Sequence record: EU863409
Source: Escherichia phage JS10
DNA: 64,000 nucleotides
Direction: 5' to 3' (one strand)
Below are positions 400 to 50,023 of this stretch, piece after piece. Position 1 is the stretch's first letter. Every line of letters starts with the position of its first letter. The translations under genes and the position numbers were made by a program. The notes below the pieces were generated by a model, which worked only from the letters and a program-made list of their open reading frames with translations, had not been told where the DNA came from and made no database searches.

Positions 400-432
400 A
401 AAGGGACCTCACGGTCCCTTTACTGTTTATTT
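395..432. terminator. Bidirectional rho-independent terminator between convergent gene 24 and rnlB
   Basis: Hairpin agggacc-tcac-ggtccct (about 402-419) with an A-run upstream and a T-rich run downstream. Confidence 0.6.
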
Positions 433-1455
433 GGATACTAGTTCAATCCATACAGCTCGTAGCGTATCTTTAACGCACTCAACGAGCTGCTTTTTAACTT
501 CAACAGGGTTTTCTGCATCGGTTAATTCTAATTCTTCACGGGCTGCCTCTTCCAAAATATCTTGGACCGTCAAGCCCATTACCTTTCCAAAATCTTTAGG
601 TGTTACTTCACCAATCTTACTGATAACGTTATTGATACGGTTAACTGTCACATAATCTGTGAATTGCCACATCAAGTCCATATCGTCTTGGGACAATACT
701 ACTGCAGCCTTAATAGGCTTATCAGATTTTTTCTTCTCGCTGAATTTAGAGTTCTTACATTTAATCGCTACACGATTTCCATTAGGAAGCCAGATTGGAA
801 CATCAGGTTTCAGTACAAAGCCTTCAGCCGTAAATACTTTACCTTCGACCTTAGGAATAAAATCGGTTGAGTTAGCAATGGTTAAACCTGCATTATCCAC
901 TGCAAAATTGTAATCTGGGATAACAGAATCAAAATCATTCGGCAGTTTAATAAGGTCTTCAAAGCTACCTGTGGCTAAGCACGGAGCAACCTTAAACTTA
1001 TGGATAATACAGAAAGCTTCCATAAGGGTATCAGTTAAAACGGATTCGGTGCCATCTTCTTTAGTAACACGGATATCAAATACATAAAAGTCTTTATCGC
1101 CGTAATCCACATTCTTCTGGATACCCGTACCAGCGAACTCGCCATAAATTTGGTACGACTGATAATTAATAGATTCGATTAGATGTTGAACAGATTTAAT
1201 AGAATCAGCATAGTTCTTAAGTACAATTTCATAGCCATAGAAATCTTCGGCCGGGAGAATTGGGCCAGTGCGCTTGGCGCACGTGACTGCGTCACGTTCT
1301 ATGATTAAACTAAAGTTGGTTCCATGAATCTTCTCACGTGCTACCCATTCACCACCAGTCAAACCATGGGTACGGAGTTTTTCGATAAACTTACTGTTGT
1401 AATGGTTTTCCAGACTGCTATATTTCTTGAACATATTATTTGCTTCCATAATCAA
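427..1455 (-). CDS. rnlB: RNA ligase 2 (Rnl2)
   Basis: 342 aa; N-terminus [16 protein letters not shown]...[15 protein letters not shown] matches T4 Rnl2 as I recall it, including the KxHGxN nucleotidyltransferase motif. Confidence 0.9.
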
Positions 1456-1804
1456 TTTTAACTAATTTACCTTTAAGGTAACCATAATTTGAAGGTTTAC
1501 AATCAGACATATACATGCTTTCTACCAGAGTGTGGTGCCTAGCATGGTGTATTTCTGTTTTCCACAACCCTATATTAGTAACTTCTTTGGCCCTTGGCAT
1601 AACTATAACAAGTCCTAACCAAGATTTCCATATAACAGGACACAAATACGGGTCCTTCAATGATGAGAATTCATGTTCTGTTATATTGCAATAGAGTCCA
1701 GTTAAAAACAGTTTCCAACTATAGAAGCTTGGTATCTTAATGGCGTATCGTTTCGTCAGGAAGACCTGCCGGGTTGCACCATTTCTTTTTCTGATAAATG
1801 GCAT
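1436..1804 (-). CDS. hypothetical protein (24.2-position)
   Basis: 122 aa ORF with ATG start, co-oriented with rnlB, in the T4 24.2 position. Confidence 0.45.
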
Positions 1805-1919: not shown

Positions 1920-2168
1920 TTACTTTGAACTAGAACGCGCTTTGCGCCGAACCTTGTTGTTCAATCTTTTACGATAAACAACCTTTTCTTTTGATTTAAA
2001 TTTCTCTTTGGCTTGTTCTACATCGACCCAAGCTTTAGCCATGTCCTTAGCAGTACCACCTAATTTTTTAGCAATTTCTATAAAATTTAGTCCAGATTCG
2101 TGTAAAAAATGTACTTTAACCTTATCCATAACAATTCTCTTGTTGAGTTGGTAAAGCCATCTTAACAT
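1920..2168 (-). CDS. small basic protein, possibly DNA-binding (24.3-position); alternative start at internal Met near 2129
   Basis: 82 aa ORF; Lys/Arg-rich C-terminus; segment LNFIEIAKKLGGTAKDMAKAW resembles a helix-turn-helix. Confidence 0.4.
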   Translation of the reverse strand: MLRWLYQLNKRIVMDKVKVHFLHESGLNFIEIAKKLGGTAKDMAKAWVDVEQAKEKFKSKEKVVYRKRLNNKVRRKARSSSK

Positions 2169-2199
2169 AGGATTTTTAACTTGTAAACAGGAGTATTAA

Positions 2200-3207
2200 A
2201 TGGCAGATTCTATTTTTGGTCATGACGGTCGAGGGACCTTTTCCGGTATTGCTTTAAAGGAATCGGATACTGTTATCCCTTTTGAAAAAATTCTTACTAA
2301 AGAAAGTCTTATAAACCCGGCAAGATTGGTAGGGAGTAATTCGTATGGCTTAGGCTTGGTTAGTAAATCCGGAAGAGCTGAAGTTCTGGCCCATTTGGGG
2401 ATAACCGAAGAAATGTTATCCCCTGGTATCCCTGGCCCTAAAGGTGAAAGCATTGTAGGACCGAGAGGCCCGGCTGGTCCTGTAGGCCCTGTGGGTCTAA
2501 ATTGGAAAGGAACATGGAGTGCTGCAACAGCCTATGTTAAGGATGATGCAGTAGGGTACAATGGGGCTTCTTATTTTTGCGTTCAGGATTCTACCGGTAA
2601 TAATCCTGCTGAAGAAAACAGCCTTTACTGGGCCTTATTGGCTTCTCAGGGTGCACAAGGCGAACAGGGTATCCCGGGTAAAGATGGTGAGCAGGGTCCG
2701 CAAGGTGTTCAAGGTCCTCCTGGGGTGGATGGGATTGATGGACTTGACGGAGCTACTGGCCCTCTAGGTCCTCAGGGTCCTCAAGGCGAACCTGGTAAAG
2801 ATGGCACAGATTTGTTTTCATTCCATAAGTATACCAACGTTGCTGCTGGGTACGGTGAAATAAAAATACCTGGGGTCGCCAATACGGTTCTTAGAGTTAG
2901 ATTGGTTAACAACCAAATAGAATACAGCATTTTAAGTAAAGGTGGGACTACCCGATATTGTGATTATCACTTTGTTGCTCCTAGTGTTTCGGGTGGAACG
3001 GTTACTACCGGTGGCGGAACTAAGACTTTGTCTCCTACAGGCTCATTTGTTATAGTAAGTGCGGCATATAACGGGCTACGTCCTATTAATATAACCTTAA
3101 AGGAATGGGGTTCTAAAACAATTTCAGAAATAACAGTATTTCAACACGGGCGCAGTGTAGATTCTAATAAACCTATATTGGTTAAAATGGTTAGTTTCCC
3201 TTATTAA
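2200..3207 (+). CDS. collagen-like repeat protein with a CBM5/12-like aromatic motif
   Basis: 335 aa; AGGAG RBS before the ATG; Gly-X-Y tracts (GIPGPKGESIVGPRGPAGPVGPVG; GAQGEQGIPGKDGEQGPQGVQGPPGVDGIDGLDGATGPLGPQGPQGEPGKDG); motif TWSAATAYVKDDAVGYNGASYFC...P...LYWALL resembles chitin-binding type 3 domains. Confidence 0.8.
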   Translation: MADSIFGHDGRGTFSGIALKESDTVIPFEKILTKESLINPARLVGSNSYGLGLVSKSGRAEVLAHLGITEEMLSPGIPGPKGESIVGPRGPAGPVGPVGLNWKGTWSAATAYVKDDAVGYNGASYFCVQDSTGNNPAEENSLYWALLASQGAQGEQGIPGKDGEQGPQGVQGPPGVDGIDGLDGATGPLGPQGPQGEPGKDGTDLFSFHKYTNVAAGYGEIKIPGVANTVLRVRLVNNQIEYSILSKGGTTRYCDYHFVAPSVSGGTVTTGGGTKTLSPTGSFVIVSAAYNGLRPINITLKEWGSKTISEITVFQHGRSVDSNKPILVKMVSFPY

Positions 3208-3218
3208 TTGGAGGTAGC

Positions 3219-4079
3219 ATGTCTATACAAGTAAATGGACCTCATTATGAATTGGTTGGGAGAACGGTAACTCTTAGGGCTGTTTTATCTGAATCTTTAA
3301 CTGACGCTGATATAAAATGGTACAAAAACGGTGTAAACGTTCCATTATTAGATAAAGAAGACCCGATGTATCTAAATCTTTGGGATGTAGGGTTTCCGGC
3401 TTCTGGGACCTATTATGCAATAGCAACCGATAAACTTACACAAGAGGTTTTTCAAAGCGACGATTTTGTTTTAGAAATAGGAATGGAGCCTAGAGATATA
3501 GTTATTTCCGTAGAAAATTTAGATGCTATCGTAAAGGCGGCCATAGGTCAAAAAGTTTCTTTACAACCTTTAATTTCTATGGGTGCCACGCCCTGGGCTG
3601 AAGTCGAGTGTGAATGGTGGAAATACGATAAAATGGTTTCAAATGTAAAGGATTTGGACGTTGATATAAATCCTTCTATGTACGGGACATATTCACTTAA
3701 TGTTTCTGCTACCGCTGAAGGAGCCTATAATCCGTATCATGATATAGTTACGGTAGATATCATGCCTTTAGATGGTATTTTACCAGAACCTGAAGTGTGT
3801 CCTTTTATATACTCGAATGATTTAAATCAATATTTGTCTTATCCTGGTGGAAGAAATAGGGCTCATATGTGGATAGGTTGGTGGGTATTGGATGAGATAA
3901 AAGGAGCCCTTGCTAAAGACCAGGATTGGGCTATCAATATAGAAGATAGCAATTTTAGGTATAAGTGTGAGCTCATGAAAGTGGCAGAACTTTTGTCACG
4001 ATATCCTGATGTAGAAATACAGGAATCAAGAAATGGATACATTTTGAATAGGAAGCACCTGACATTAAATGTCATATAA
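3219..4079 (+). CDS. Hoc-like protein: Ig-like N-terminal region plus Hoc-type C-terminal capsid-binding region
   Basis: 286 aa; GGAGG RBS; Ig-like segment IKWYKNGVNV...SGTYY; C-terminus WIGWWVLDEI...DW...EDSNFRY...YPDVEIQESRNG parallels the canonical Hoc C-terminus at 4124-5533. Confidence 0.8.
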   Translation: MSIQVNGPHYELVGRTVTLRAVLSESLTDADIKWYKNGVNVPLLDKEDPMYLNLWDVGFPASGTYYAIATDKLTQEVFQSDDFVLEIGMEPRDIVISVENLDAIVKAAIGQKVSLQPLISMGATPWAEVECEWWKYDKMVSNVKDLDVDINPSMYGTYSLNVSATAEGAYNPYHDIVTVDIMPLDGILPEPEVCPFIYSNDLNQYLSYPGGRNRAHMWIGWWVLDEIKGALAKDQDWAINIEDSNFRYKCELMKVAELLSRYPDVEIQESRNGYILNRKHLTLNVI

Positions 4080-4080
4080 C

Positions 4081-4112
4081 AAAACGGGAGAGCGAAAGCT
4101 CTCCCGTTTTTA
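4081..4112. terminator. Bidirectional rho-independent terminator between the Hoc-like gene and hoc
   Basis: Hairpin cgggagagc-gaaa-gctctcccg flanked by an A-run and a T-run. Confidence 0.65.
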
Positions 4113-4123
4113 TTTAGCCAAAA

Positions 4124-5533
4124 TTAGTAAAAATAAATTATACCTGTGTCAAGAGCCGAACGATGGATAATTCTTCCATTTCGTGATTCTTGTACATCAA
4201 CCTCTGGATAATCCGCAACCATTTTTTGAAGAGTGTAGCGATGGAGATAATAATTGCTATCTGGGTCATCAGTTTTCCAATCTTTACCTTCAAGTGTCAT
4301 TTTCTGGATTTCATCCATAACCCACCAACCGGCCCAAATATACGCTGAATTACGAACCGGCAGCGGATGGACGTAAGGTAGTTCGCCTTCCGGTTCAGGA
4401 GCAACTTTAGGCGTAATTGTTACATTACCAGATTTTTTGACAGTCACAGGATTATAGTCGGTAGCCGAAACCACAACAGAAACTTCAATAACCTGTGAAC
4501 CTTCAGCACTTGTATCGACTACTAAAGTATCTGTGGTGCCGGCAACAGGTGAACCATCTTTCTTCCAAGAATATGCAAAAGTAGCACCAGCAGGCGCACC
4601 TGCTACGGTAGCTTTAAAAGAAGCTGGAGTTCCTTCCGGAGTATTAATAGAGGCCGGCGCTAAAGTAACAGAAACACCTGTCATGGTCTTTTTAGTAATT
4701 GTTACACTTCCGGTTTTGGTAACGGTTAAATCGTTATAATCCGTACCTTTTAGGACTACCGAAACTTCAATAGTGTAAGAACCTACTGTAGATGTATCAA
4801 CAGCAAGGGTATTACTGCTTTCGCCCGGAATAATAGAACCATTTTTCTTCCAAGAATAAGTTGCATTTACGCCGGAAGGAGCGCCAACTACATCCGCTTT
4901 AAACTGTGCAGATGAGCCTTTCTCTGTACTAATTGAGGCTGGTGTTAAAGTAACGGAAGCACCTGATATAGTTTTCTTAACAAAAGTTACCGCAATACCT
5001 TTAGTAGCTGTAGCCGGGTCATATTCAGGGGCGGTAACAGTAACTTCACAGTTCAACGTGTAATTTGCTTCTGCTGCTTCAGTTACAGTAATAGTTTTAC
5101 CAGTTTGACCTGAAATTACAGTTGTATTACGTTTCCAAACATAAGCCATTGTAGCGCCAGCAGGGACACCCGATACGTTAGCAGTAACAACTTGGGATTG
5201 ACCGATTTCTTTAGAAACGGAAGTAGGGTCTAAGGTCAAAGAAAGAGCCCCAATGGTCTTATTAGCTACAGTAACTTCAAAAGTTTTTTCAGCTACCTCA
5301 GGTTCGCCTTCGGTCGGAGTAGAAGTTGCTACTACTTTTAAAACTTTCTTACCAGCTGGAGCCGCACCGGTATATCTCAAAACATTGGTGGCCTCTGGAT
5401 TAGAAGCACCGTCAATGGTCCATACATATGTAACGGTTCCTTCTACAGCTGCACCTGTTGCGGTAGCAGTGTAGTTGGCGCTTTCGCCTATTTTAATAGA
5501 CGCAGCGCCGGCTATACTTACAGTAAAAGCCAT
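4124..5533 (-). CDS. hoc: Hoc, highly immunogenic outer capsid protein (Ig-like repeats plus capsid-binding C-terminus)
   Basis: 469 aa; several Ig-like repeats (AT[FY][AS]WKK[ND]GS...), C-terminal WAGWWVMDEI...YPEVDVQESRNG; position as in T4. Confidence 0.85.
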   Translation of the reverse strand: MAFTVSIAGAASIKIGESANYTATATGAAVEGTVTYVWTIDGASNPEATNVLRYTGAAPAGKKVLKVVATSTPTEGEPEVAEKTFEVTVANKTIGALSLTLDPTSVSKEIGQSQVVTANVSGVPAGATMAYVWKRNTTVISGQTGKTITVTEAAEANYTLNCEVTVTAPEYDPATATKGIAVTFVKKTISGASVTLTPASISTEKGSSAQFKADVVGAPSGVNATYSWKKNGSIIPGESSNTLAVDTSTVGSYTIEVSVVLKGTDYNDLTVTKTGSVTITKKTMTGVSVTLAPASINTPEGTPASFKATVAGAPAGATFAYSWKKDGSPVAGTTDTLVVDTSAEGSQVIEVSVVVSATDYNPVTVKKSGNVTITPKVAPEPEGELPYVHPLPVRNSAYIWAGWWVMDEIQKMTLEGKDWKTDDPDSNYYLHRYTLQKMVADYPEVDVQESRNGRIIHRSALDTGIIYFY

Positions 5534-6269: not shown

Positions 6270-7766
6270 ATGCAAATTCAAGTACATTTTGATAATTTTA
6301 GTCATGTTCGTGTCGAGTGTGATGAATCCACCTTCTACGAACTCAGAGACTATTTCAGCTTTGAAGCTGATGGATATAAATTTAACCCTAAATACCGTTA
6401 CGGGCAATGGGATGGGAGAATTCGTCTTCTAGATTATAACCGTAAACTTCCATATGGTCTAGTCCCACAAATTAAAAAATTCGCTGACCAGTTTGAATAC
6501 TCTCTGTGGATTGACCCACGTATTCTTGAACAGGAAGATATTTCTCGCGAAGATTTTGACTCATGGGTAGCTTCACAAGAGATTTATTCAGGTTCTACCA
6601 AGATTGAGCCGCATTGGTATCAGAATGAAGCCGTATACAACGGTCTGACGAAACGTCGTGCAATTCTGAATTTACCTACATCTGCAGGTAAATCATTGAT
6701 TCAGGCGCTCCTGAGTAGATATTATGTTGAGAACTATGAAGGTAAAATTCTTATCTTAGTTCCTACTACTGCACTTGTTGACCAGATGATTAATGACTTC
6801 ATTGATTATCGTTTGTTCCCTAAAGCTGCTATGCTTGGTATTCGTTCAGGTACTGCTCGTGATTCCGATGCAATGATTTATGTTTCAACTTATCAAACGG
6901 CTATTAAACAACCTAAAGAATGGTTTGCTCAGTTTGGTATGTTTATGAACGACGAATGCCATTTGGCGACAGGTAAATCAATTTCTACCATCATCGAAGG
7001 CCTAACCAATTGTATGTTTAAATTCGGTTTGTCTGGTTCTTTAAAAGACGGTAAAGCCAATTTAATGCAATATATGGGTTTGTTTGGTGATGTGTTTAAG
7101 CCAGTATCCACTTCGCAGTTAATGGAAGAAGGACAGGTTACAGACCTTAAAATCAACAGTATTTTCCTTCGTTATCCGGATGAATTCACTGTTAAGATGA
7201 AAGGTAAAGATTACCAATCAGAAATAAAGGTCATTACTAAGGCTACTCGTCGTAATAAATGGGTTGCTAATTTAGCTGTTAAACTCGCTAAGAAAGAAGA
7301 GAACGTATTCCTGATGTTTAAAAACATCGAACACGGTAAAACTCTTTTTGAAATGGTTAAAGAGCAACATAAAGAAGTTTATTACGTATCAGGTGAAGTT
7401 AATACCGAAACGCGTAATGCTCTGAAAGTAATGGCGGAAAATGGTAAGGGTATTATTGTTGTGGCAAGTTATGGTGTGTTCTCTACTGGTATTTCCGTTA
7501 AGAACCTTCATCATGTTGTATTTGCTCATCCGGTAAAATCCAAAATCATTGTACTCCAGACAATCGGTCGTGTACTCCGTAAACATGCTTCTAAATCAAC
7601 AGCACAAGTTTGGGACATTATAGACGACATGGGCGTTAAGCCTAAATCAGCAAATGCTAAAAAGAAATATGTTCATTTGAATTATGCATTAAAACATGCC
7701 TTAGAACGTATTCAACGTTATGCTGACGAGAAATTTAATTACGTAATGAAACAGGTGGATTTATGA
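6270..7766 (+). CDS. uvsW: UvsW DNA/RNA helicase (SF2)
   Basis: 498 aa; N-terminus VHFDNFSHVRVECDESTFYELRDYFSFEADGY and Walker A LPTSAGKS match T4 UvsW as I recall it. Confidence 0.9.
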   Translation: MQIQVHFDNFSHVRVECDESTFYELRDYFSFEADGYKFNPKYRYGQWDGRIRLLDYNRKLPYGLVPQIKKFADQFEYSLWIDPRILEQEDISREDFDSWVASQEIYSGSTKIEPHWYQNEAVYNGLTKRRAILNLPTSAGKSLIQALLSRYYVENYEGKILILVPTTALVDQMINDFIDYRLFPKAAMLGIRSGTARDSDAMIYVSTYQTAIKQPKEWFAQFGMFMNDECHLATGKSISTIIEGLTNCMFKFGLSGSLKDGKANLMQYMGLFGDVFKPVSTSQLMEEGQVTDLKINSIFLRYPDEFTVKMKGKDYQSEIKVITKATRRNKWVANLAVKLAKKEENVFLMFKNIEHGKTLFEMVKEQHKEVYYVSGEVNTETRNALKVMAENGKGIIVVASYGVFSTGISVKNLHHVVFAHPVKSKIIVLQTIGRVLRKHASKSTAQVWDIIDDMGVKPKSANAKKKYVHLNYALKHALERIQRYADEKFNYVMKQVDL

Positions 7767-7990
7767 AGTCCTTTAAAGAAGTTATCTATGAAGCCTCTAT
7801 CGAGAGCTTCATGTCTAAAATTAGTTCTTGTCAGACCATGGAAGGTCTGGAGGAATTAGAGAAGTATTACAAAACTCGTAGTAAGGAAGCCGAACTTCGT
7901 GATTCGGATGATATCAGCGTACGCGATGCATTGGCTGGTAAGAGAGCCGAATTGGAGTCGATGGACGACGAGGAAGAGGAAGATTTCTAA
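7763..7990 (+). CDS. uvsW.1: UvsW.1 small acidic protein
   Basis: 75 aa ORF overlapping the uvsW stop (ATGA), as for T4 uvsW.1. Confidence 0.65.
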   Translation: MKSFKEVIYEASIESFMSKISSCQTMEGLEELEKYYKTRSKEAELRDSDDISVRDALAGKRAELESMDDEEEEDF

Positions 7991-8025
7991 ACAAAAAAGG
8001 CCCAACCTTTCGGAAGGGCCAATAA
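7990..8025. terminator. Hairpin terminator, stronger for the - strand
   Basis: Imperfect hairpin ggccc...gggcc with a T-run on the - strand side. Confidence 0.4.
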
Positions 8026-8050
8026 CCATAAAATGGCTATACACACTAGA

Positions 8051-8218
8051 CTAAAGTAATAATTGTGTTTCGTTCAGCTGTTCTTCAGTGTTTTCCGTAA
8101 CAGGCATGCTTTGAACGTAATTATAACATGAACCCGGATGAACCGGACCTTTTTCTGTTTCAACAACCAATGCAGCATCGATTGGAGTTTTACAGACAAC
8201 GCAAATCTTATCTGACAT
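8051..8218 (-). CDS. small Cys-containing protein (uvsY.-2 position)
   Basis: About 55 aa ORF MSDKICVVCKTPIDAAL... with GGAGA RBS; below the track size cutoff; coordinates from my reading. Confidence 0.35.
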   Translation of the reverse strand: MSDKICVVCKTPIDAALVVETEKGPVHPGSCYNYVQSMPVTENTEEQLNETQLLL

Positions 8219-8246
8219 GATTGTCTCCTTAGTTTAACTTACATAT

Positions 8247-8345
8247 CTATTTATTACTTGCTAAAGCGGCATTAATGAATTCTTGGAGAAGTTTCATCTT
8301 ATCGGCATCTACTTTAATGGGTTTGGTATTTTTAGTACGTCTCAT
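8247..8345 (-). CDS. very small basic ORF (about 32 aa), start overlapping the uvsY stop
   Basis: ATG overlaps the uvsY TAA (TAATG); may not be translated. Confidence 0.2.
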   Translation of the reverse strand: MRRTKNTKPIKVDADKMKLLQEFINAALASNK

Positions 8346-8779
8346 TATTTGCCAGCCTCAAATTGTCTCATTTCATGCATGGTCTTAAGGTTAAAACCTC
8401 GCGCCTTAATAGCATCCAGTGCTGAACTACAAAAGTCCTGTAATAAGGCCCAATACTGGATTGATGTATCTATTTTAATCACGCTAGAATCTGCGGCCAT
8501 TACAGTCTTTAATTCTGACTTCTCGTATTGGTCCATACAAACCTCATCACCAGGCTCTCCACGTCCCGTGTAGAAATCTAATCGCTTCTTAAGTGAGGTC
8601 TTTTTCTGGATTTCTAATCGCATTATCTCTTTCTTACAATTCGTATACAGCCTTAGCCATTTGCTGTGCAGCAAAACATTGTTCTGTACTTCATACTGTA
8701 AACGAGTCCCATCAATCTTTAAATCTTCATCTAATGCATCTTGGAATGATTCCAATTTATATTCAATCTCTTTACTCAT
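8345..8779 (-). CDS. uvsY: UvsY recombination mediator
   Basis: Track ORF 8345-8812; start taken at the internal Met (MSKEIEYKL); ...KLQYEVQNNVLLHSKWL...DTSIQYWALLQDFCSSALDAIKARGF matches T4 UvsY. Confidence 0.85.
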   Translation of the reverse strand: MSKEIEYKLESFQDALDEDLKIDGTRLQYEVQNNVLLHSKWLRLYTNCKKEIMRLEIQKKTSLKKRLDFYTGRGEPGDEVCMDQYEKSELKTVMAADSSVIKIDTSIQYWALLQDFCSSALDAIKARGFNLKTMHEMRQFEAGK

Positions 8780-8837
8780 CGCATGTTTCCTGTGTAATAA
8801 CCATAAGACCATTATACACTATTCATTTGAACAGCAA

Positions 8838-9227
8838 TTAACCACTCTGTGAGAGCTGGATTCTAATTTGCTCTAATGTATCCGGGTCATCAACAATACT
8901 AAACTGGACGGATACTATAATAGAGTTGTCATCATAAACAGGGGTAACGCCTACGGCAAGAGCAGAAATTCTGGGTTCGAAGTTCCGCACGGCGGAAACT
9001 ATATTACGCTTAATGGTATCCGTAATTAATGGGGTAATATTCTCAAATAGTTGATTACTGATATCACAACCAAATTCAGGCATAAAAGGGCGAGAACCCT
9101 TACGAGTGGTAATAATGCCTAACAAACTATTTTTTACTGCACGGGCCCCTGTAGCTTTAGCGACGTCTCTATTCCAAGACGTCCTCATTTCGGGGTCCAA
9201 ATCTGAATACATTTTATCGATATTCAT
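8838..9227 (-). CDS. 25: baseplate wedge subunit gp25
   Basis: 129 aa; ...LLGIITTRKGSRPFMPEFGCD... matches T4 gp25. Confidence 0.85.
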   Translation of the reverse strand: MNIDKMYSDLDPEMRTSWNRDVAKATGARAVKNSLLGIITTRKGSRPFMPEFGCDISNQLFENITPLITDTIKRNIVSAVRNFEPRISALAVGVTPVYDDNSIIVSVQFSIVDDPDTLEQIRIQLSQSG

Positions 9228-9850
9228 TACATCACCTTAAAGAACTCTTTAAGTCCCTCAATAACGTGGACGGTATGCTCACCACATTCACAAGAAATAG
9301 GTATGGCCAAAATAGGCTTAGGGGCGACTAGAGCATCATAAACTTCTTTTACATCTTTTTCTGTTATCACAGAATAAAGGTCGTCTAGTTCCGCATCACT
9401 TAAATCAGAAAGAAGAAGCTTTTCACCTGCAGAAGTTAAAATATAATCGATACATCCTGCAACCATCATAGCCCTATTTTTGTCTTCAAAGAGCTTAGGA
9501 TATCTGAACACTATTTTAAAGTTGCCGAAGTCCTTAATAATATCAGGCTCTTTACCTAATGTAGCGCGGGTTAACGTCATAGGGACAACCTGGGAGCGGC
9601 CACAACTGCAAACCCACTCACGTTCTATATTCACTTCAGCTAGTGAATGGGCCCACAGGTTTATCACCAGGAGCTCAGATTCTTGCTTGTTTAAACCACG
9701 AGCATCTGTGCAATTCAAAATGAGTTCATTGATAAAGGGCTCTATTCTGTCTTCTAATTTAGCTTGGAGCAAGTCCTTATACTCTCTGAGGGTAAATGCT
9801 CTGCATTTTATGGTCTTGTTTTTAATTTTTACGTCAAAAGTATAATTCAT
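9227..9850 (-). CDS. 26: baseplate hub subunit gp26
   Basis: 207 aa; synteny between gp25 and gp51; start overlaps the gp25 stop. Confidence 0.75.
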   Translation of the reverse strand: MNYTFDVKIKNKTIKCRAFTLREYKDLLQAKLEDRIEPFINELILNCTDARGLNKQESELLVINLWAHSLAEVNIEREWVCSCGRSQVVPMTLTRATLGKEPDIIKDFGNFKIVFRYPKLFEDKNRAMMVAGCIDYILTSAGEKLLLSDLSDAELDDLYSVITEKDVKEVYDALVAPKPILAIPISCECGEHTVHVIEGLKEFFKVM

Positions 9851-9868
9851 TGTCTTCTCCTTTAAGCT

Positions 9869-9880
9869 TATTTATAAATA
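9869..9880. promoter_or_regulatory. Back-to-back late promoters inside the palindromic TATTTATAAATA between divergent genes 26 and 51
   Basis: TATAAATA on the + strand (9873-9880) and on the - strand (9869-9876). Confidence 0.45.
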
Positions 9881-9897
9881 CATCAATAAGAGGATAC

Positions 9898-10653
9898 CCT
9901 ATGGCTAATATAGTACGTTGCGAAATGCCTGATGGAGTCCACCGATTTAAACCTTTTACAGTAGCTGATTATCGTGATTTTATTTTGATTCGAAATGATA
10001 TGAATAATAAATCACCTGAAGAGCAAAAACAAATTTTAGATGAGTTACTGGAAGAATACTTTGGTGAGTACCCTGTGTCATGGCGCCCATACATGTTTAT
10101 TGAATTGTATACGTCATCTCTCGGCAAGACCAAAATTCCTATCCGATACACTTGCAGTAAGTGTGAAAAGGATAGACAAGTTTTATTCAATTTGAAGCAG
10201 ACCAAGTTAGTTAACCCTACAATTGAAGTGGCTGGCTTGAAATTGACATTCAAATTCCCTGAAATAGAATATCATGATAAATCTGAATTGATTTTGAATA
10301 CCCTCCAGACAGTAGAAGATGAAAATGGGGTTTATAACTGGTCAGACCTTTCTGAAGAAGACCAGTTAGCCGTAATAGATGCTATAGACTTATCTACTTT
10401 AGAGGATATAGTCAAACAAACAAGCCCTATTCATTTCGAGCTCAAATATGGGTGCTGTAATCGTAGAACAATTACATACACTGACGTTTTAGAAGTGTTT
10501 AAACTTATAGTCAATCCGGATGAGATATTTTTATTTTACCAAATAAACCATTTACTGGTAAAGAACAATTATTCATTAGAAAGCATTATGCAGATGATTC
10601 CAATCGAACGCGGTATTGCTTTGTCTTTGGTTGAAAAGGACCTTAAGAAATGA
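9898..10653 (+). CDS. 51: baseplate hub assembly catalyst gp51
   Basis: Track ORF starts at 9850 with a non-ATG codon; the ATG at 9898 (MANIVRCEM...) has RBS AAGAGG and gives about 251 aa, like T4 gp51. Confidence 0.75.
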
Positions 10654-11819
10654 GTTCAAAAACTATGCAGCGTGAAGGCTTTCCTAATATTAGTATACGC
10701 CTTTACGAAGATTATGACGCCTGGTTAGAGCATCGTTTTGTTGAACTAGGCGCGACATTTACTACCCTAACAATGCGAGATGGTCTTTATGGTAATAATG
10801 AAGGATTGCTCCAGTTTTATGATGCAAAAAACCTTCATACTAAAATGGATGGTGAACAAATTATCCAAGTTTCTGTTAAGAATGCCAACTCGGAACGTAC
10901 CCAATCAAGAATTTACGGAAGTAAACACTTTGCAGTAGGGGTGGATTCTAAGGGCGACAATATCATAACAATACAACTCGCCCCTATCCACTTTTTAGAA
11001 AATCTTAAATTCGGACGTATGTTCTTCCCTAGTGTTCAAGAAACATTAACCGAAATGATTGGGGTTATTTATCAAGACCGACCACTCCTTGCACCTCCAT
11101 TGAACGGGATAAACGTTTATGTTCCTAATGTTCCGTGGTGTGATTCTATGGACAGATATATGGAATTTGTACGAGAAGTTGGTATGGCCGTTGAATCCGA
11201 TAAATTTGTATTTGTCTGGGAAGATATAGATGGTATTTCTATCATGGACTACGAATTTATGGTTAATCAAGAGCCTATCAATTTTGTGGTTGGTGAGCCT
11301 CGTTTAATAGGCCAATATGTCCAAGATATGGATACTCCTATTGCATTTGATTTTGAGTGGTTAACTAAAGCCAACCAACATACCCGAAAACCGTACGAAA
11401 ATGCTACAGTATATGCCCATTCGTTCCTAGATAAAAACGCCACACGAATTACTTTTGGTGACGGGCAAAACAGTATATTGGTTTCTCGTTCAGGTGGATA
11501 TTCTGATTATACCTACCGAAACGGGTTTGAAGAAGCTGATAGATTGGTTACTATGGCCCAGTATGATGGGTACGCTCATTGCAAGGTATATGGGAACTTT
11601 GAATTAACTCCGGGTGATAAGATTAACTTCTATGACCCTAAAAACCAATTCCAATACGATTTTTATGTAGACGAAGTTATTCATGAAGTGAGTAACAATA
11701 CATCAATTACAAACCTTTATATGTTTACTAATGGTAAGCCTATTAAGATTGAAGAGCCACCGAAGGTTAAAAATGAACTTAAAACTGATACTCCCGATCA
11801 AGAAAATAACGCTGGGTGA
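10650..11819 (+). CDS. 27: baseplate hub subunit gp27
   Basis: 389 aa; synteny and size match T4 gp27. Confidence 0.85.
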
Positions 11820-16452: not shown

Positions 16453-18576
16453 CTACATTTTGAATTTATTTGGTAAAGAAGAGATGTCCAAAGATGCAGC
16501 AAGGATTTCCATAGCCTCATTACTTTCTGAAACAGATTCTGAAACTAGGAATTCTTTAAACCCATTCATCAATTTAACTTCACCGGTTTCCATCAGATGG
16601 TCGCCATCGTAAACGGACTCACTGAGTTCTGAAGGAGATGTCACTGTAGCTTCCATAAGGTATTTGTGAGATACTCTATCATTCATAGCAAAAGCCGCTA
16701 CTTTATCAACCTTCAACAATAATCCGCGCGGAAGGATAATTTCTGCTTCTTCAGAATATTCCGTAAGGTCACCAGGAGCGATAACTTTAACTGCTTCAGC
16801 ACCTCGAATAACCATACCGATTTCAGCAATCCTGTCTGCAGGGCCTTCAGGTGCAATTGGATTACCGAACTCATCTTCTTCCCATTCTACCTCTTCATCA
16901 TCAACTTCACCTACGTCAGATGAACTACCACTAGCCAATTTAAACAACTCATCGGCGGAGGATAAAGAACCTTCATCACCAACAAAAACTGCTTGGTTGT
17001 CGAGGGCCATATAATTTTTACCAAATTCGCCAAAGATGTTAGGCTTTAATGAAGCGGACACAAAGTTCTTAAAGTAAAATGTTTTGTTATCAATATTATG
17101 GCGTAGAATTTTGTATGGTAAATCCTGGCCACGATACAAAATAGTACCCTTAGGAAGTTTAATACCCTTAGTAAATGCTGAGTCTAAATCCTTAATCAAT
17201 TTAATAGCTGTTGTATTGTTTTCGGATTCAGGTTTACCTAAAAGGAATAAGTTCATAGGAGCATATTCAGCTGCACAATATTCGATAATGGCATTACTTT
17301 CGTCTTTTGTCAAGCCCTTAGGTTTAATGAGCTCGCCTGAATAAGCATACGCATCGCCAATAGAATCGTTAATTAGTTTATAAACGGCTTCCATAGCGAA
17401 AGCAATTCGGGATGCTTTCTCTGAAGGAGACCCCTGAAAACGGGCACTCAGGTTATTAACAATTCTCTTAATAATATCCAGACTATTGGTAGTATTGATT
17501 TGAGAAAGGCCGCTTAAAAGTCTATCGACTTCCGTATTAAAAAACGCCATATTATTAGAGTAAATTTCAAACCCTTGTTTATCTCTATTAGCATAATTTA
17601 GTTTAAATTTACTATCAGTCATTAAAGCGTGCGTGAGAGCAATGGTGTATCTAAAGTTGGCAAGGTCCTCACTCTTAGATTTAAACTGAGAGGCCTGTCG
17701 CATTTTAGTAATAGCACCTTTTTTAAAGTTCTGGCTAATCTGCTCAATACCTTCGTTCTCAGGGCCTTCGGCCGAGTGAACAGGTACAGAAACTTCAAAC
17801 TCGTTATAAACCTGCAATTCTTTAGGTGATAAAGTTTCAGGTTCGGCAGTAGAATACTGCGCTGCTGCAGCCATACGACGGGAAATTTTAGTACGAGAGA
17901 TAACGGCCTTATCGGTACGTTTCTCTTCAACCTGTGCAATAGATGCCGCTACGGCTTCGACCTTACTTACGGCCTGTCCGGTTTTCTTAGAAACATAAAC
18001 TTCACCGACTTTAGACTCAACCTTGGTATAAAGGTCCGCATCAATTTCAGGCATACCCTTGATATCTTCAATATTAGTGCCACGACGTGCTAAAAGAACG
18101 TATGTATGTTTACCACTAAACTGGAACATATCATCAACAACTTTAAACTTACCACCAGTACGAGCCATAGCCAAACGAGCTAATACACGCTGAACAGTAG
18201 GACCCTTACCTTTCATTTTCTTGGTAGGGAAACGGAACAAAACTGCATCCATTTTAAGTTTACTTACTTGTTCGTATATCGTATCGAAAATAGTATTCAA
18301 TGCACCAAGAGGGTCAGAACCAAGGCCACCTTTGAGTTCAGCTGGAGCACCCTTGCTCGACAAACTCATTAAAATAACATGAACGTATTTGTCGCCAGGC
18401 TTAACCATTTTAATAGCGTCTCCTTGAGACGCATAAGATACCATACGAGCAACAAGATTATCATTACCCGGTGCTTTAATAGAGAAAATCTGTGGGATAC
18501 CGGAGCCCGGCTTAAGATTTGTTACTGGATAGTTTTTAGCGGAATCACTATCAAAAACTTCGTTTAAATTTTCCAT
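16453..18576 (-). CDS. alt: Alt-type ADP-ribosyltransferase (packaged head protein), paralog 1
   Basis: 707 aa; C-terminal domain has the R (YRGQ), S-x-S (FVSASL) and E-x-E (EAEIILPRG) ADP-ribosyltransferase motifs; position between 54 and 30 as T4 alt. Confidence 0.85.
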   Translation of the reverse strand: MENLNEVFDSDSAKNYPVTNLKPGSGIPQIFSIKAPGNDNLVARMVSYASQGDAIKMVKPGDKYVHVILMSLSSKGAPAELKGGLGSDPLGALNTIFDTIYEQVSKLKMDAVLFRFPTKKMKGKGPTVQRVLARLAMARTGGKFKVVDDMFQFSGKHTYVLLARRGTNIEDIKGMPEIDADLYTKVESKVGEVYVSKKTGQAVSKVEAVAASIAQVEEKRTDKAVISRTKISRRMAAAAQYSTAEPETLSPKELQVYNEFEVSVPVHSAEGPENEGIEQISQNFKKGAITKMRQASQFKSKSEDLANFRYTIALTHALMTDSKFKLNYANRDKQGFEIYSNNMAFFNTEVDRLLSGLSQINTTNSLDIIKRIVNNLSARFQGSPSEKASRIAFAMEAVYKLINDSIGDAYAYSGELIKPKGLTKDESNAIIEYCAAEYAPMNLFLLGKPESENNTTAIKLIKDLDSAFTKGIKLPKGTILYRGQDLPYKILRHNIDNKTFYFKNFVSASLKPNIFGEFGKNYMALDNQAVFVGDEGSLSSADELFKLASGSSSDVGEVDDEEVEWEEDEFGNPIAPEGPADRIAEIGMVIRGAEAVKVIAPGDLTEYSEEAEIILPRGLLLKVDKVAAFAMNDRVSHKYLMEATVTSPSELSESVYDGDHLMETGEVKLMNGFKEFLVSESVSESNEAMEILAASLDISSLPNKFKM

Positions 18577-18579
18577 TAT

Positions 18580-20664
18580 TTACCCTTGGATGAATTTTTC
18601 TGGTATGTCATAGAGGTCTATGCATGAAGCCAAAAGAGGCAGTACGTCAAACCGTGTAGATTTAACAAATGAATCAAAAGATACAGGGCTTTCGGAAGTA
18701 TCGAAGTCATCTTGGTATACGACCAACTCACCGGTTTCCATTAGTACGTCACCATCATACACTACAGATTCTTGAAGCTCATCCGTCGTCATAACTTCGG
18801 CTTGAACGAGTTTTGTATTACTAGATGTCGTTCCGTCATTATTAGAGGCATCAGTTATTTTATTAACTTTGACCATCAATCCGCGTGGTAGAATAACTTC
18901 AGCTTCTGTTGCTATTCCAAGACTTCCTGGATATACCGCATTAACTTTATGGGCTCCATCAATTGCCCATCCTATTTGAACTTTAACGTAATCAGGGTTT
19001 TCTTTATACGCTCTTATTTCATTAGGATTAATGGTTATTCCTTCTTCATTTTTATCGACTGTCAATTCGTTGCGAACTTCCGGTTCTAAAAGACCAACCC
19101 CGGCATGTGTAACACCAAAACGTCCAAAAATGATAGGAGTCAGTGAAGTAGATACAAAATTTCTAAAATAAAATACCTTATTTTTAACTAGTGCTTCGTA
19201 TATAGGAGCGGTCATACTCTGTGCACGATAAACTGTAATGCCTTCTGGTATACGGTCACCATTTTCAAAAGCTGAATCAAGATTATTAACAGCAGATTCA
19301 ATAGACCTTTCATTCATTACATCATAGTTCTGAGGATTATAACGTCCTAAAAGAAGATTATTGATGTCGGTATAACCTGAGCCGCAGTATTCTCTGATGC
19401 CGCGCTTTTGTGATGGGGTGTATTTAGAACCATCACGAGCGATAGTAATATCGACCATAATACCACCACCTACACCGGCAAAACTATAAATGCGTTTTTT
19501 AATGAACTTGGTCTTGGCCGCTTTCCACTTGGACTCGGTTAATTCATTCCAGACGTCGTCAGGTTGACCTTTACGAGTTTTGTTATGCATAGCCAGCCAT
19601 TCGCCTTTATATTCTTCAAAAACCGTATTAATAACAGAGGCATATTTTTCTAGAGCTTTAACAGATGTCAAAGGTTCGTTTTTGATGGCTGTAAGAATTT
19701 TATCTTTAATTTTCTCTTGGATTTCACCTATACCGTGAAGAGGAAACATTTTATATTCGTAATGCAATTCTTCAGCAGTGCCTTCAGCTACTATATTAGC
19801 AACTTTATTTTTAGCCGCAGGAGAATTGTTATTAGTGACCATTTCCTGTGCCTCAGGGATTAATGGAGCTGTTGCAGGTTTATTAAAATCTGCTGCAGTA
19901 GCTTCATATTTCTTAAACAGTTCACTTTCATTACGATAAGATTCTAAAGACTGACTTGCTGCAATAGCGCGACGAGAAATCTTAGTCTTGGTTATAACCA
20001 TTTTATCAGTGCGACGTTCTTCAACTTTAGCAATACTGCCGGCAATAGCAGTTTCTTTAGTAACCTGCACACCTTCTTTTTTAGAAATATAAACTTCACC
20101 AACATCAGAATCTACCTTAGTATACAATTCGGCATTAATTCCTGGCATACCTTTGATATCTTCAATATCAGCTTGTTTACGAACTACTAGGATATAAGTA
20201 TGTTTACCGGTAAATTGGTACATAGCCGGAACTACTTTGAAGCGTCCACCAGTTTTTTGAGTTACCAGACGTTGGATAATCCGTTGGACAATAGGCCCTT
20301 GCCCTTTCATTTTCTTGGTTGGAAAACGGAACATCACAGCATCCATACGAAGCTTTTTAACTTGTTCGAATACTACGTCGAAAATGGTATTAATAGCATC
20401 AATAGGAGTAGGGCCTAAGCCGCCTTTAAGTTCGGCTGGAGAACCTTTAGCCGAAAGGCTCATAAGGATAACGTGGGCGTATTTATCACCTAATTTAACC
20501 TGTTTAATAGCATCGCCTTCAGAGGCATAAGATACCATACGAGCAACTAATTGGGATTCGACATCACCAATCTTCCAAATCTGGGGTACTTTAAGTTTCG
20601 GGTTTAAGTTTACAGTAGGCAGCGTGCCTTCAGACTCAAACACTTCATTTAATTGTTCGGTCAT
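18580..20664 (-). CDS. Alt-type ADP-ribosyltransferase, paralog 2
   Basis: 694 aa; N-terminal ~230 aa close to paralog 1; C-terminal YRAQ / FVSTSL / EAEVILPRG motifs intact. Confidence 0.85.
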   Translation of the reverse strand: MTEQLNEVFESEGTLPTVNLNPKLKVPQIWKIGDVESQLVARMVSYASEGDAIKQVKLGDKYAHVILMSLSAKGSPAELKGGLGPTPIDAINTIFDVVFEQVKKLRMDAVMFRFPTKKMKGQGPIVQRIIQRLVTQKTGGRFKVVPAMYQFTGKHTYILVVRKQADIEDIKGMPGINAELYTKVDSDVGEVYISKKEGVQVTKETAIAGSIAKVEERRTDKMVITKTKISRRAIAASQSLESYRNESELFKKYEATAADFNKPATAPLIPEAQEMVTNNNSPAAKNKVANIVAEGTAEELHYEYKMFPLHGIGEIQEKIKDKILTAIKNEPLTSVKALEKYASVINTVFEEYKGEWLAMHNKTRKGQPDDVWNELTESKWKAAKTKFIKKRIYSFAGVGGGIMVDITIARDGSKYTPSQKRGIREYCGSGYTDINNLLLGRYNPQNYDVMNERSIESAVNNLDSAFENGDRIPEGITVYRAQSMTAPIYEALVKNKVFYFRNFVSTSLTPIIFGRFGVTHAGVGLLEPEVRNELTVDKNEEGITINPNEIRAYKENPDYVKVQIGWAIDGAHKVNAVYPGSLGIATEAEVILPRGLMVKVNKITDASNNDGTTSSNTKLVQAEVMTTDELQESVVYDGDVLMETGELVVYQDDFDTSESPVSFDSFVKSTRFDVLPLLASCIDLYDIPEKFIQG

Positions 20665-44192: not shown

Positions 44193-47100
44193 ATGGCTGA
44201 TATTTTAAAACCTGCATTCCGTGCTACATCCGGACTCGATGCTGCGGGCGAGAAAGTTATCAATGTTGCCAAAGCCGATTACAATGTACTAGATGATGGC
44301 GTCAACGTTGAATTCTTTATAGATGAGAACACCATCCAGGCGTACGACGAGACGCGCGGATATAAGAAAGGGTTTGCCGTAATCCATGACCAACGTATTT
44401 GGGTTGCTCAACGTGATATCGCTGCACCATCTGGAACTTTTGTACCCGGTTATTGGACTGCTACCCGTACTGACCCTAAATGGATTACAGTAGCATCTCC
44501 TACGCGCCAGTTGGCTTCCGGTGAATATATTGCGGTGGACTCAGCTGCTAGCTTTACTACATTTACTCTGCCTCCTAACCCTACTGATGGTGATACCATT
44601 GTAATCAAGGATATCGGTGGCCGTGTAGGTTATAATGAAATCAAGGTTCAATCTAGTTCTGCTCCAGGCGGCGGTAATCAGAAAATTGTTCGATTTGGTA
44701 ACCAGTTCTCTGAAACTCTGATAACCAAACCTTTTTCTTATAACATGCTTATCTTTGCTAACCGTCTTTGGCATTTCTGGGAAGCAGGTAACGAAGAACG
44801 TGGTATTCGCGTAGAGCCTAATACTGCACAGTTCCAAGCTCAAGCGGGTGATAACGTTTTACGTCGTTATACTTCAGGTGCAGTAATTAAATTTACTCTT
44901 CCTAAGTATGCGAACCAAGGTGATATGGTTAAAACCGTAGATATCGATGGTCTTGGAAGTAAGTTCCACTTAATCGTTGAAACCTTTGATGCATCGTCTT
45001 CATTAGGTAAGCCTGGTCAGCATAGCATGGAATTCCGTACCTCTGGTGATGGGTTCTTTGTTTATAACTCTGTTGAAAAAGTGTGGTATGTTTGGGACGG
45101 TGACCGCCAAACTCGACTGCGTGTTATTCGTGATGACGTAGAACTTTTGGCTAACGAAAGTATTATTGTTTTTGGTCCTAATAACACAACTCCACAAACT
45201 ATTAATATCACTTTACCTACTAGCGTAGCACAAGGCGATACTATTAAAATCGCATTGAACTATCTTCGTAAAGCACAGACAGTAAATATTAAGGCTGCTG
45301 TAGGTGATAAAATTGCTTCTTCGGTCCAATTGCTCCAGTTCCCTAAACGTTCTGAATATCCACCAGATACTGAATGGGTGTTGAATGACGTATTGACCTT
45401 TAATGGTAATATAAGTTATACCCCGGTTATTGAACTGAGTTATATCGAAGACACCACTACAGGCGGTAAATATTGGGTTGTTGCCCAGAACGTTCCTACG
45501 GTAGAACGTGTGGATTCTAAGGATGATTTAACTCGTGCTCGTCTTGGTGTTATTGCCCTTGCGTCTCAGACCCAGGCAAACGTCGACCATGAAAATAATC
45601 CTGAAAAAGAACTTGCAATTACTCCGCAGACTTTAGCTAATCGTGTTGCCACTGAAACTCGTCGTGGTATTGCTCGTATTGCTACGACTGCTCAGGTGAA
45701 CCAAGACACCACTTTCGCTTTCCAGGATGATTTGATTATTTCTCCTAAGAAATTAAACGAACGTACTGCAACCGAAACTCGTCGTGGTGTAGCCGAAATT
45801 GCTACGCAACAGGAAACTGATGCTGGTGTTGACGATACCACCATTATTACTCCTAAGAAGCTACAGACGCGCCAGGGCACTGAAAGTCTTTCAGGTATTG
45901 TAAAATATACCTCTACGGTAGACACCACTCCTGCGACTGCTAGGGACACTGTAGGTACTAACGTTTATAATAAGAACGTAGGCAATTTGGTTATTTCTCC
46001 TAAAGCTTTAGACCAATATAAAGCTACTCAAGCCCAACAAGGTACGGTATATCTTTCTACCCAGTCAGAAGTTAATACCGGACAATCTGCTAGCGGATTT
46101 GCTAACAGTGCAGTTTCTCCTGAAACGTTGCATGCCCGTGTGGCTCTTGATACTCGTACAGGGTTAATTGAAATTGCTACGCAAGTAGAGACAGATACTG
46201 GAACAGATTATACTCGTGCGGTAACGCCTAAAACGTTAAATGATAGGAAAGCTACGGAAGGATTGACTGGTATTGCTAGAATTGCAACCCAAGAAGAATT
46301 TGATGCAGGCACGTTAGATAATGTTATTTCAACTCCGTTGAAAATTAAAACAAGACTTAATGATACTGCTAGAACTTCTGTCTCAGCAGCCAGCGGTTTG
46401 ATTGAATCAGGAACCTTATGGAACCATTATACACTAGATATTAGAGAAGCAAATGAGACCCAACGTGGTACCGCTCGTCTGGCTACCCAGACCGAAGTCA
46501 ATGTTGGCACCGATGACAAAACCATCATCACTCCTTTGAAATTACACTCTAAAAAATCTACTGAAAGTTCTGAAGGTATTATTCGTGTTGCAACGAATAC
46601 CGAAACCACTGCAGGAACTTCTAAAGTTCTGGCTGTAAGCCCTTCTGGTTTAAAATATGTAGTACAGTCCGAAACCACTTGGGAAGCTACTGCACTTCGC
46701 CGTGGATTTGTTAAATTGACCGAAGGTGCTTTGACTTACTCAGGAAATAAAGTTACCGGTTCTGGTGTTAAATTTAACTCAGGTACAGGCCTTTATGAGA
46801 ACGACGATACTGTTCTGAATGCAGCCAACTATCCTAAAACAGGTTATGCGGTTTCATCTTACGAGATGAATAAAACTTTACAGAACTTTTTACCTATAAA
46901 TGCTACGGCTGTGAACTCCGAGAAATTGGATGGCCTGGATTCACTTCAGTTCATTCGTAGAGACGTCGACCAAACGGTTAATGGTTCTTTAACCCTAACC
47001 AAACAATTGAACCTGGCAGCCCCTCTGGTGTCTTCTAGTACTGCTACATTTACGGATGTTACAGCTACTAATTCTACCTTTGGTACAGTGAACGTTGTTA

Positions 47101-48161: not shown

Positions 48162-48169
48162 GAGGTATT

Positions 48170-49291: not shown

Positions 49292-49320
49292 GGAACCTTC
49301 GGGTTCCTTTTTCGTTTTCT
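49292..49320 (+). terminator. Rho-independent terminator after gene 35
   Basis: ggaacc-ttcg-ggttcc hairpin followed by tttttcgtttt. Confidence 0.6.
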
Positions 49321-49367
49321 ACAGCCATAAATATATAAAAAGGCTATAACTCCCAAAGGAAACTCAA

Positions 49368-50015: not shown

Positions 50016-50023
50016 GAGGCATT

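Follow-up and report, generated by a model that had tools for sequence, protein, structure and literature searches.

In the genome of the Dhakavirus Escherichia phage JS10 (record EU863409), within the 64,000-nucleotide stretch analyzed here (the window), the open reading frame (ORF) at 2200..3207 (+) encodes a 335-residue collagen-like protein that is very probably a trimeric virion fibre belonging to a widespread modular family. The gene is followed by one for a short paralogue of the head decoration protein Hoc (short hoc), and the two form a cassette that behaves as a unit among phages, a linkage that had not been part of an initial annotation of this DNA made from its sequence alone. Full-text searches of the literature yielded no description of the fibre gene or of its pairing with short Hoc, and the conserved cassette seems to be a new element.

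The fibre reading frame opens with an ATG and we judge it to be real: it is backed by homologues and by the pattern of codon changes relative to phage Esco_phi_B-01, four of which are synonymous and one non-synonymous. The encoded protein and the JS10 “tail fiber-like protein” YP_002922525.1 (UniProt C4MZS1), an uncharacterized entry, are 100% identical in sequence; likewise, the product of short hoc (3219-4079) is identical to the JS10 “hoc” entry YP_002922526.1. The exact fibre protein has been in the databases since the JS10 genome was deposited. The name under which it was deposited was assigned automatically or by similarity, and no experimental characterization of the protein was found in the literature searched. 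The protein is organized as follows:

2200..2424 (+), N-terminal domain, residues 1-75, here called type A, with the motif FGHDGRG...IPF..IL...GITEEML; the presumed virion-attachment end
2425..2496 (+), short collagen segment, residues 76-99; 3 triplets, an “IV” break, then 4-5 triplets
2497..2640 (+), module with the fold of carbohydrate-binding module (CBM) families 5/12, residues 100-147 (48 residues), in line between the two collagen segments
2650..2811 (+), long collagen segment, residues 151-204; 18 unbroken Gly-X-Y triplets
2812..3207 (+), C-terminal β-sandwich domain, residues 205-335 (131 residues), and stop codon; the presumed distal knob

The collagen assignment is secure. The protein scores 41.4 bits against the Pfam Collagen family (PF01391; cut-off 27.2), and in 20,000 shuffles of its sequence the longest Gly-X-Y run was usually 2-4 triplets and reached 8 only once, compared with 18 in the real protein. 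The short segment consists of GIPGPKGES, the two-residue “IV” and then GPRGPAGPVGPVG(LN). Thus, of the two uninterrupted runs described in the initial annotation, the second stands, at 18 rather than about 17 triplets, whereas the first is interrupted after three. The two runs had also been called rich in Pro, Gln, Glu, and Lys; the long run indeed contains 8 Pro and 7 Gln residues, but the next most conspicuous residue is Asp (6) rather than Glu or Lys. If these segments are triple-helical, a rise of 0.286 nm per residue would give lengths of ~7 nm for the short and ~15 nm for the long segment, and the whole rod would extend roughly 30 nm.

The C-terminal 131 residues, which had been described as Gly/Thr/Ser-rich and β-like, are rich in Val (14), Gly (14), Ser (13), and Thr (13). 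Structure prediction, for which AlphaFold monomer models were used, gives an all-β, ten-strand β-sandwich for this region with a mean predicted local distance difference test (pLDDT) score of 85, in keeping with that description. The domain is not a C1q/TNF jelly-roll trimerization head, which sets the protein apart from the BclA-like bacterial collagens.

The module located between the collagen segments contains the motif TWSAATAYVKDDAVGYNGASYFCVQDSTGNNPAEENSLYWALL at residues 105-147, exactly as first quoted. Against the Pfam CBM5/12 family (PF02839; cut-off 26.2 bits), the isolated residues 100-147 score 27.9 bits, while the full-length protein scores a sub-threshold 23.2 bits with a match that spans only positions 1-28 of the 44-position profile (ending at 28-29). 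The same family also matches 33 of 40 sister modules. A profile built from the modules matches the chitin-binding domain of Bacillus circulans ChiA1 (1ED7) from end to end (E 2.7e-7). In addition, the AlphaFold model of the module (pLDDT ~83) superimposes in Foldseek onto the chitinase CBM5/12 structures 1WVV, 2D49, and 4HMC at 1.0–1.5 Å over 42–46 residues with a probability of 1.00; the accompanying E-values are only 6e-3 to 2e-2 because the module is small. The CBM5/12 homology of the module is therefore real, by profile and by fold, and the combination of collagen repeats with a CBM5/12-type module that had been noted from the sequence is upheld.

The phage module shares the small β fold of the bacterial chitinase domains (the ChiA1 chitin-binding domain, 1ED7; ChiC, 2D49/1WVV; MmChi60, 4HMC), and W106, Y112, V118, Y120, G122, Y125, P136, and W144 align with chitinase CBM5/12 core residues. 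By contrast with the chitinase domains, which are attached to an enzyme, the phage module is embedded in a collagen rod. A further difference lies in the ligand site. In the HMMER alignment to 1ED7 the segment “AGW” (in “SLAGWEP”) that carries W687 of ChiA1 is deleted from the phage module, which therefore lacks the ligand aromatic at this position. We take W687 to be the residue essential for chitin binding. As the segment containing it is absent, canonical chitin binding, which we considered as a function of the module, was judged unlikely, and chitin binding appears doubtful. The original label “chitin-binding-type” therefore applies to fold and family and not to the canonical chitin site.

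Nor does the module act as a lectin tip, as had been suggested by analogy with other collagen-like fibres; it is an in-line node between collagen segments, and the tip is the separate β-sandwich domain. The arrangement had been thought noteworthy, but relatives of the protein show that it is not unusual. Among 121 homologues retrieved by two homologue searches, 118 have the module flanked by Gly-X-Y runs; each of these proteins holds 1-5 copies, and their N- and C-terminal domains are of many different kinds. A tblastn search located the collagen/CBM stalk in 148 phage records. The same module fold is also found in solved fibres of cyanophage A-1(L), of the Agrobacterium phages 7-7-1 and Milano, and of an Anabaena contractile injection system (PMC10966104; Foldseek). 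We view the CBM5/12 module as a standard node set in line within phage fibres.

The two ends of the protein have separate histories. Whatever C-terminus follows it, the type-A N-domain is conserved (35-55% identity) across 21 phage records and 12 metagenome proteins, and at least three different C-terminal domain types are found on it. Its carriers are Dhakaviruses, Erwinia phages Cronus, IT22, and FBB1, Salmonella phage CGG4-1, Aeromonas phages 65, AS4, AhFM11, and AP1, and metagenome contigs. The C-terminal domain of the JS10 fibre (termed C1) is rare: word-indexed searches with the domain alone or with an alignment of it yielded one or two proteins, and an exhaustive search confirmed its rarity, with 14 matches among 1.84 billion cluster representatives. 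C1 occurs at 40-56% identity on proteins with other N-termini, namely on a type-B N-terminus in the Straboviridae (VR25/VR26 and Kosakonia phage 305), in the Vequintavirinae (A5-4), and on a DUF1737 N-terminus in the Drexlerviridae (AugustePiccard, e4/1c, and RobRod40). The first ~30 residues of the type-A N-domain align with the type-B N-terminus of VR25, Kosakonia phage 305, and A5-4. The DUF1737 N-terminus has no PDB relative and so gives no clue to attachment. An N-terminus conserved within lineages, a rod and a horizontally swapped C-terminal knob make up the classic layout of a virion fibre, with a proximal anchor and a distal binding tip.

The second component of the cassette adjoins the fibre gene on the same strand:

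2189..2193 (+), Shine-Dalgarno sequence AGGAG of the fibre gene, read from the sequence, 6 nucleotides 5′ of the ATG at 2200
2200-3207 (+), collagen-like fibre gene
3210..3214 (+), Shine-Dalgarno sequence GGAGG of short hoc
3219..4079 (+), short hoc

Short Hoc (286 residues) is composed of a type-A immunoglobulin (Ig)-like domain 1, a second Ig-like domain and a Hoc capsid-binding domain (WIGWWV.DEI...ESRNGYI), the part of Hoc that attaches at the centre of gp23 capsid hexamers. It matches the PHROG family of Hoc-like head decoration proteins (E 3.7e-44), and its C-terminal ~190 residues align with the last Ig domain and the capsid-binding domain of canonical Hoc. The co-oriented fibre and short hoc genes are separated by an 11-nucleotide gap. 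Elsewhere they overlap by 4 nucleotides (Aeromonas phage 65) or share one base (metagenome locus L015).

Adjacent fibre and short-Hoc genes were found in 30 isolate records and 4 metagenome loci, short Hoc adjoining the fibre gene in all four of the metagenome loci examined, with the order inverted in one of these (L016). Moreover, the two partners match in type. The type-A fibre N-domain is present in 21 phage records and the type-A Ig region of short Hoc in 23; both are present in 18, where they are always adjacent and co-oriented. The type-B short Hoc is found in 12 Straboviridae records, which are exactly the 12 that carry a type-B fibre N-terminus, and no mixed A/B pair was found among the 30 records. 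Phage IME08 also contains both the type-A N-domain and short Hoc, separated by rnlB; its fibre gene lies between 24b and rnlB, away from its short hoc. The annotated start of the IME08 “tail fiber protein” gp169 falls inside the collagen region and the type-A N-domain (MVDETLFGHDGRGNF...) is located just upstream in another frame (1575-1800), a split due to a frameshift, to pseudogene formation or to a sequencing error.

The cassette is also lost, replaced and relocated as a unit. The congener WG01 lacks exactly the two cassette genes, homology resuming at a junction at 2192/4134. Pseudomonas phage PspYZU05 (4501-5165) harbors a decayed cassette in which a stop codon interrupts the frame of the fibre N-domain, the collagen region has been lost by deletion, and short Hoc is cut to 132 residues that retain the capsid-binding domain. 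Compared with dhabil, DNA similarity is gone from just inside the fibre gene through to the capsid-binding part of short hoc. The backbone of KIT01 shares 90% identity with the window, yet this phage carries a full type-B cassette that is 96% identical to that of VR25. The cassette further occurs in unrelated neighbourhoods, near tk/pseT in Aeromonas phage 65, directly after gp24 in Cronus, and in L015.

Comparison with close relatives revealed recombination inside the cassette. The first 12 kb of the window share 95.7% identity with the Dhakavirus Esco_phi_B-01 and 90-95% with other Dhakaviruses. Between JS10 and Esco_phi_B-01, the fibre genes differ at 5 nucleotides and the short hoc genes at 59 codons (43 synonymous and 16 non-synonymous), and this sharp jump in divergence at the boundary points to a breakpoint of recent recombination between them. 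The fibre N-domain and Ig domain 1 of short Hoc flank the most recombinogenic part of the cassette, where the C-terminal domains are swapped. That the N-domain type and the Ig type match despite recombination between them therefore points to more than simple linkage. We also considered whether the gp24 duplication tracks with the cassette. The phage of the window and its relatives, including IME08, have two tandem gp24 paralogues, but these are present with or without the cassette, and the idea was ruled out because WG01 has two gp24 genes and no cassette.

The reading that we favor, although it falls just short of probable, is that the fibre is a capsid-borne accessory fibre functionally coupled to short Hoc, with short Hoc providing or flanking its docking site at hexamer centres and the C-terminal knob serving as an adhesin. 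Such a fibre would be ~30 nm long, probably homotrimeric, and would consist of an N-terminal anchor, a short interrupted helix, a ring of three CBM5/12-fold nodes, the 18-triplet helix and the distal β-sandwich knob. Short Hoc would take some of the gp23 hexamer centres in competition with long Hoc. The fibre N-domain would then dock on short Hoc, probably via the outermost Ig domain, the one matched to it in type, or else on the capsid immediately alongside, and the swappable knob would reach past the Hoc layer to act as a low-affinity adhesin for glycans or proteins on bacterial or gut surfaces. The expected effect would be higher encounter rates, as is thought for Hoc and other head fibres.

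A more specific version of this proposal, possible though doubtful, is a two-component appendage in which the Hoc paralogue is a socket at the hexamer centre, its outer Ig domain type-matched to the N-domain of the collagen trimer, and the fibre a head appendage that plugs into this socket and exchanges its knob with coliphages of unrelated families. If true, nature would have arrived at an equivalent of engineered Hoc display, and one decoration protein would be seen for the first time to anchor another. Fokine et al. (PMC10385173) describe phages that encode two Hocs as well as Hoc capsid-binding domains joined to different cargo, for instance a GDSL esterase, but leave collagen-like genes unmentioned, and the literature searched contains no description of a Hoc paralogue as, or linked to, a dock for a separate trimeric fibre. 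In JS10, it is the partner that has the Hoc capsid-binding and Ig-like domains, whereas the fibre itself has no Hoc domain.

Several points weigh against placing the fibre on the capsid with short Hoc as its partner. The analysis establishes the domain architecture, the CBM5/12 homology, the linkage of the cassette and the exchange of modules, but that the fibre trimerizes, belongs to the virion, sits on the capsid, docks on short Hoc and works as an adhesin is what we infer from genomics. A collagen fibre is a trimer, whereas each hexamer takes a single Hoc monomer (PMC10385173), a geometric mismatch for docking of the one on the other. The N-domain itself was modelled with low confidence (pLDDT 33-67), and its fold is unusable. 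The type-B N-terminus is also present in 13 Vequintavirinae-like records without a T4-type Hoc, and the N-terminal motif therefore cannot depend on short Hoc alone. The matching of types could partly reflect physical linkage, as there are two types only and few independent events. Finally, GenBank and PHROG label the fibre as a tail fibre (phrog_5073, E 1e-69), and collagen-CBM5/12 stalks are also present in genuine tail fibres, both in homologues with PF03906 or PF07484 and in the solved fibres 8KEC, 9RKV, and 8FQC.

These labels, and the presence of the stalk in solved tail fibres and on proteins with T7-tail-fibre N-terminal or tail-collar domains, would fit an accessory fibre of the tail or neck, such as a whisker or a side fibre, whose hoc neighbourhood is a by-product of a hypervariable insertion hotspot. 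The collagen-like proteins of E. coli prophages are likewise thought to be side tail fibres (PMC3368898), and a Vequintavirinae homologue lies directly upstream of head-tail connector genes, beside a giant collagen-like protein, where a neck fibre would be well placed. We nevertheless regard this explanation as unlikely. The tail-fibre label stems only from the collagen/CBM and C-terminal regions. The N-domain alone (residues 1-75) has no relatives in sequence searches of Pfam, PHROGs, and the PDB and no similarity to known baseplate- or neck-attachment domains, including those of T4-type tail fibres (gp12, gp34-37, Wac), and the gene is not among tail genes. Indeed, the phage already has a full long-tail-fibre gene set (gp34, gp35, and gp37 at 44193-53335) 42 kb from the fibre gene. 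A tail or neck location also leaves unexplained the short-Hoc neighbour in 34 loci, its recurrence in three neighbourhoods, and the joint loss of both genes. In the Drexlerviridae, moreover, the homologue is encoded between the protease/scaffold and major capsid genes, far from the tail-tip genes.

Somewhat less likely still is a capsid fibre whose N-domain itself makes the contact with the gp23/gp24 shell, with short Hoc an independent decoration that is co-selected or co-transferred as part of an “adhesion cassette”. This explanation involves no mismatch between a trimer and a monomer. It is consistent with the N-terminal motif shared with Vequintavirinae proteins that lack a T4-type Hoc and with the position of the fibre gene directly after the gp24 vertex genes in IME08 and Cronus, and it has a precedent in SPP1 gp12, a collagen-like trimer that binds hexamer centres alone (PMC7602432). 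However, direct binding alone does not explain why N-domain and Ig types agree in every one of the 30 records even though recombination occurs between them, and the two proteins would compete if both used the hexamer centre. A non-virion role, in which lysis would release a soluble, collagen-like protein that binds glycans and serves, for example, as a decoy, in immune modulation, or in attachment to biofilm or mucus, could draw on the carbohydrate-binding-module fold and on the fact that virion membership is deduced from genomics, but is highly improbable given an architecture that fits virion fibres (lineage-conserved N-terminus, rod, swappable knob), a gene that is always within structural head modules, and a sequence with neither signal peptide nor hydrophobic segment.

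Returning to a capsid fibre coupled to short Hoc, the closest functional parallel is SPP1 gp12. The gp12 gene is found immediately 5′ of the major capsid gene, a position shared by the Drexlerviridae relatives of the JS10 fibre. Both proteins are collagen-like accessory proteins encoded in head modules, but gp12 is only 64 residues long, with ~8 triplets, and has no CBM node, C-terminal knob or Hoc-type partner. The likeness is one of architecture and gene position only: for gp12, a trimeric capsid protein that occupies hexamer centres and is proposed to take part in host adhesion, capsid binding has been demonstrated (PMC7602432), while for the JS10 fibre it is proposed.

Other capsid fibres provide looser precedents. 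The head fibres of phi29 (gp8.5; PMC7602432) and the capsid fibres of phage 7-7-1, for which an Ig-domain base has been proposed (PMC12796354), are non-essential trimeric or flexible appendages thought to help first host contact. The phi29 fibres, however, are α-helical and sit at quasi-3-fold sites, and those of 7-7-1 leave from pentamers. Among tail fibres, the collagen-like proteins EPclA-D of E. coli O157 prophages, thought to be side tail fibres (PMC3368898), and the node-bearing fibres of A-1(L) (gp33), 7-7-1, and Milano follow the same logic as the JS10 fibre: N-terminal attachment, a rod with small nodes and a swappable C-terminal binding domain. These fibres have tail-type N-domains (PfN and others) and are encoded among tail genes. 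The JS10 fibre, unlike them, has an unrelated N-domain and is encoded in a head locus beside a Hoc paralogue.

If the fibre is carried on the capsid beside, or on, a dedicated short Hoc, T4-like phages would possess a second, exchangeable layer of surface adhesins besides Hoc. This would matter for how phages adhere to mucus and bacterial surfaces and, as JS10 and CLB_P2 were isolated for therapy, for the pharmacokinetics and immunogenicity of therapeutic phages of the Dhakavirus type. It could inform the engineering of capsid display, and would correct a widespread “tail fiber protein” annotation, given to genes whose products may be no tail fibres, that misleads host-range prediction from receptor-binding-protein labels. 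Should the protein be merely an accessory tail fibre, the finding would be routine. The cassette makes the idea of a head fibre directly testable.

C1-bearing relatives outside the T4-like phages are also encoded in head modules. In the Drexlerviridae they lie directly upstream of the major capsid gene, after the protease/scaffold genes and far from the tail-tip genes; in the Vequintavirinae they follow closely on the major capsid gene and one resembling inh, and they precede the head-tail connector genes. In A5-4 (6365-11475), the major capsid gene is followed by three genes and then by the C1-type collagen gene. The three intervening genes encode a 194-residue protein with a T4 Inh-like N-terminal segment (phrog_3259/1051), a 1263-residue giant collagen-like protein with nine Gly-X-Y runs, and a 211-residue protein whose function is unassigned.

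The “putative head outer capsid protein” of AugustePiccard/Bas01 (4005-5294) was considered as a Hoc-like partner and rejected, as it is a GDSL/SGNH esterase (PF13472, E 4e-13) with no similarity to Hoc. Because this neighbour is an esterase, the pairing with Hoc does not reach the Drexlerviridae. The esterase also belongs to phrog_9703 (“head decoration”) and may be a capsid-displayed esterase located beside the collagen fibre. A Hoc-GDSL fusion has been described in phage PG7 (PMC10385173).

The surroundings of the cassette agree with the head-decoration locus recognized in the initial annotation, the fibre gene being placed between the rnlB and 24.3-like genes on one side and the two hoc genes, inh, and uvsW on the other:

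10-399, end of gp24, the second of two tandem vertex paralogues; the window begins inside this gene
427-1455 (-), rnlB
1436-1804 (-), small inserted ORF of 122 residues (phrog_4301, unknown function) between rnlB and the 24.3-like gene
1920-2168 (-), 24.3-like DUF2774 gene
4086..4105 (no strand assigned), GC-rich perfect hairpin (GGGAGAGC...GCTCTCCC) with T-runs on both strands, from a consensus scan only
4124..5533 (-), canonical hoc, 469 residues, with about four Ig-like domains and a capsid-binding domain
after canonical hoc, inh, uvsW, uvsY, and gp25, in T4-like order

Terminator-like in appearance, the hairpin at 4086-4105 is a candidate bidirectional terminator between the fibre/short-hoc pair and the convergent hoc. 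Upstream of 2200, no exact T4 late promoter (TATAAATA) was found, and one-mismatch sites only are present, at 1816 and 1822. Two ORFs that overlap the fibre gene, at 2220-2453 (-; 77 residues) and at 2561-2767 (+, other frame; 68 residues), were set aside as Gly/Pro-rich by-products unsupported as genes. The 122-residue ORF at 1436-1804 has no counterpart in the DNA of dhabil and WG01, where homology skips 1436-1805, and looks like a strain-specific insertion. Farther along, the window contains two tandem paralogues of an Alt-like RNA polymerase ADP-ribosyltransferase on the (-) strand, at 16453-18576 (707 residues) and 18580-20664 (694 residues), both of which match phrog_802 with E < 1e-250.

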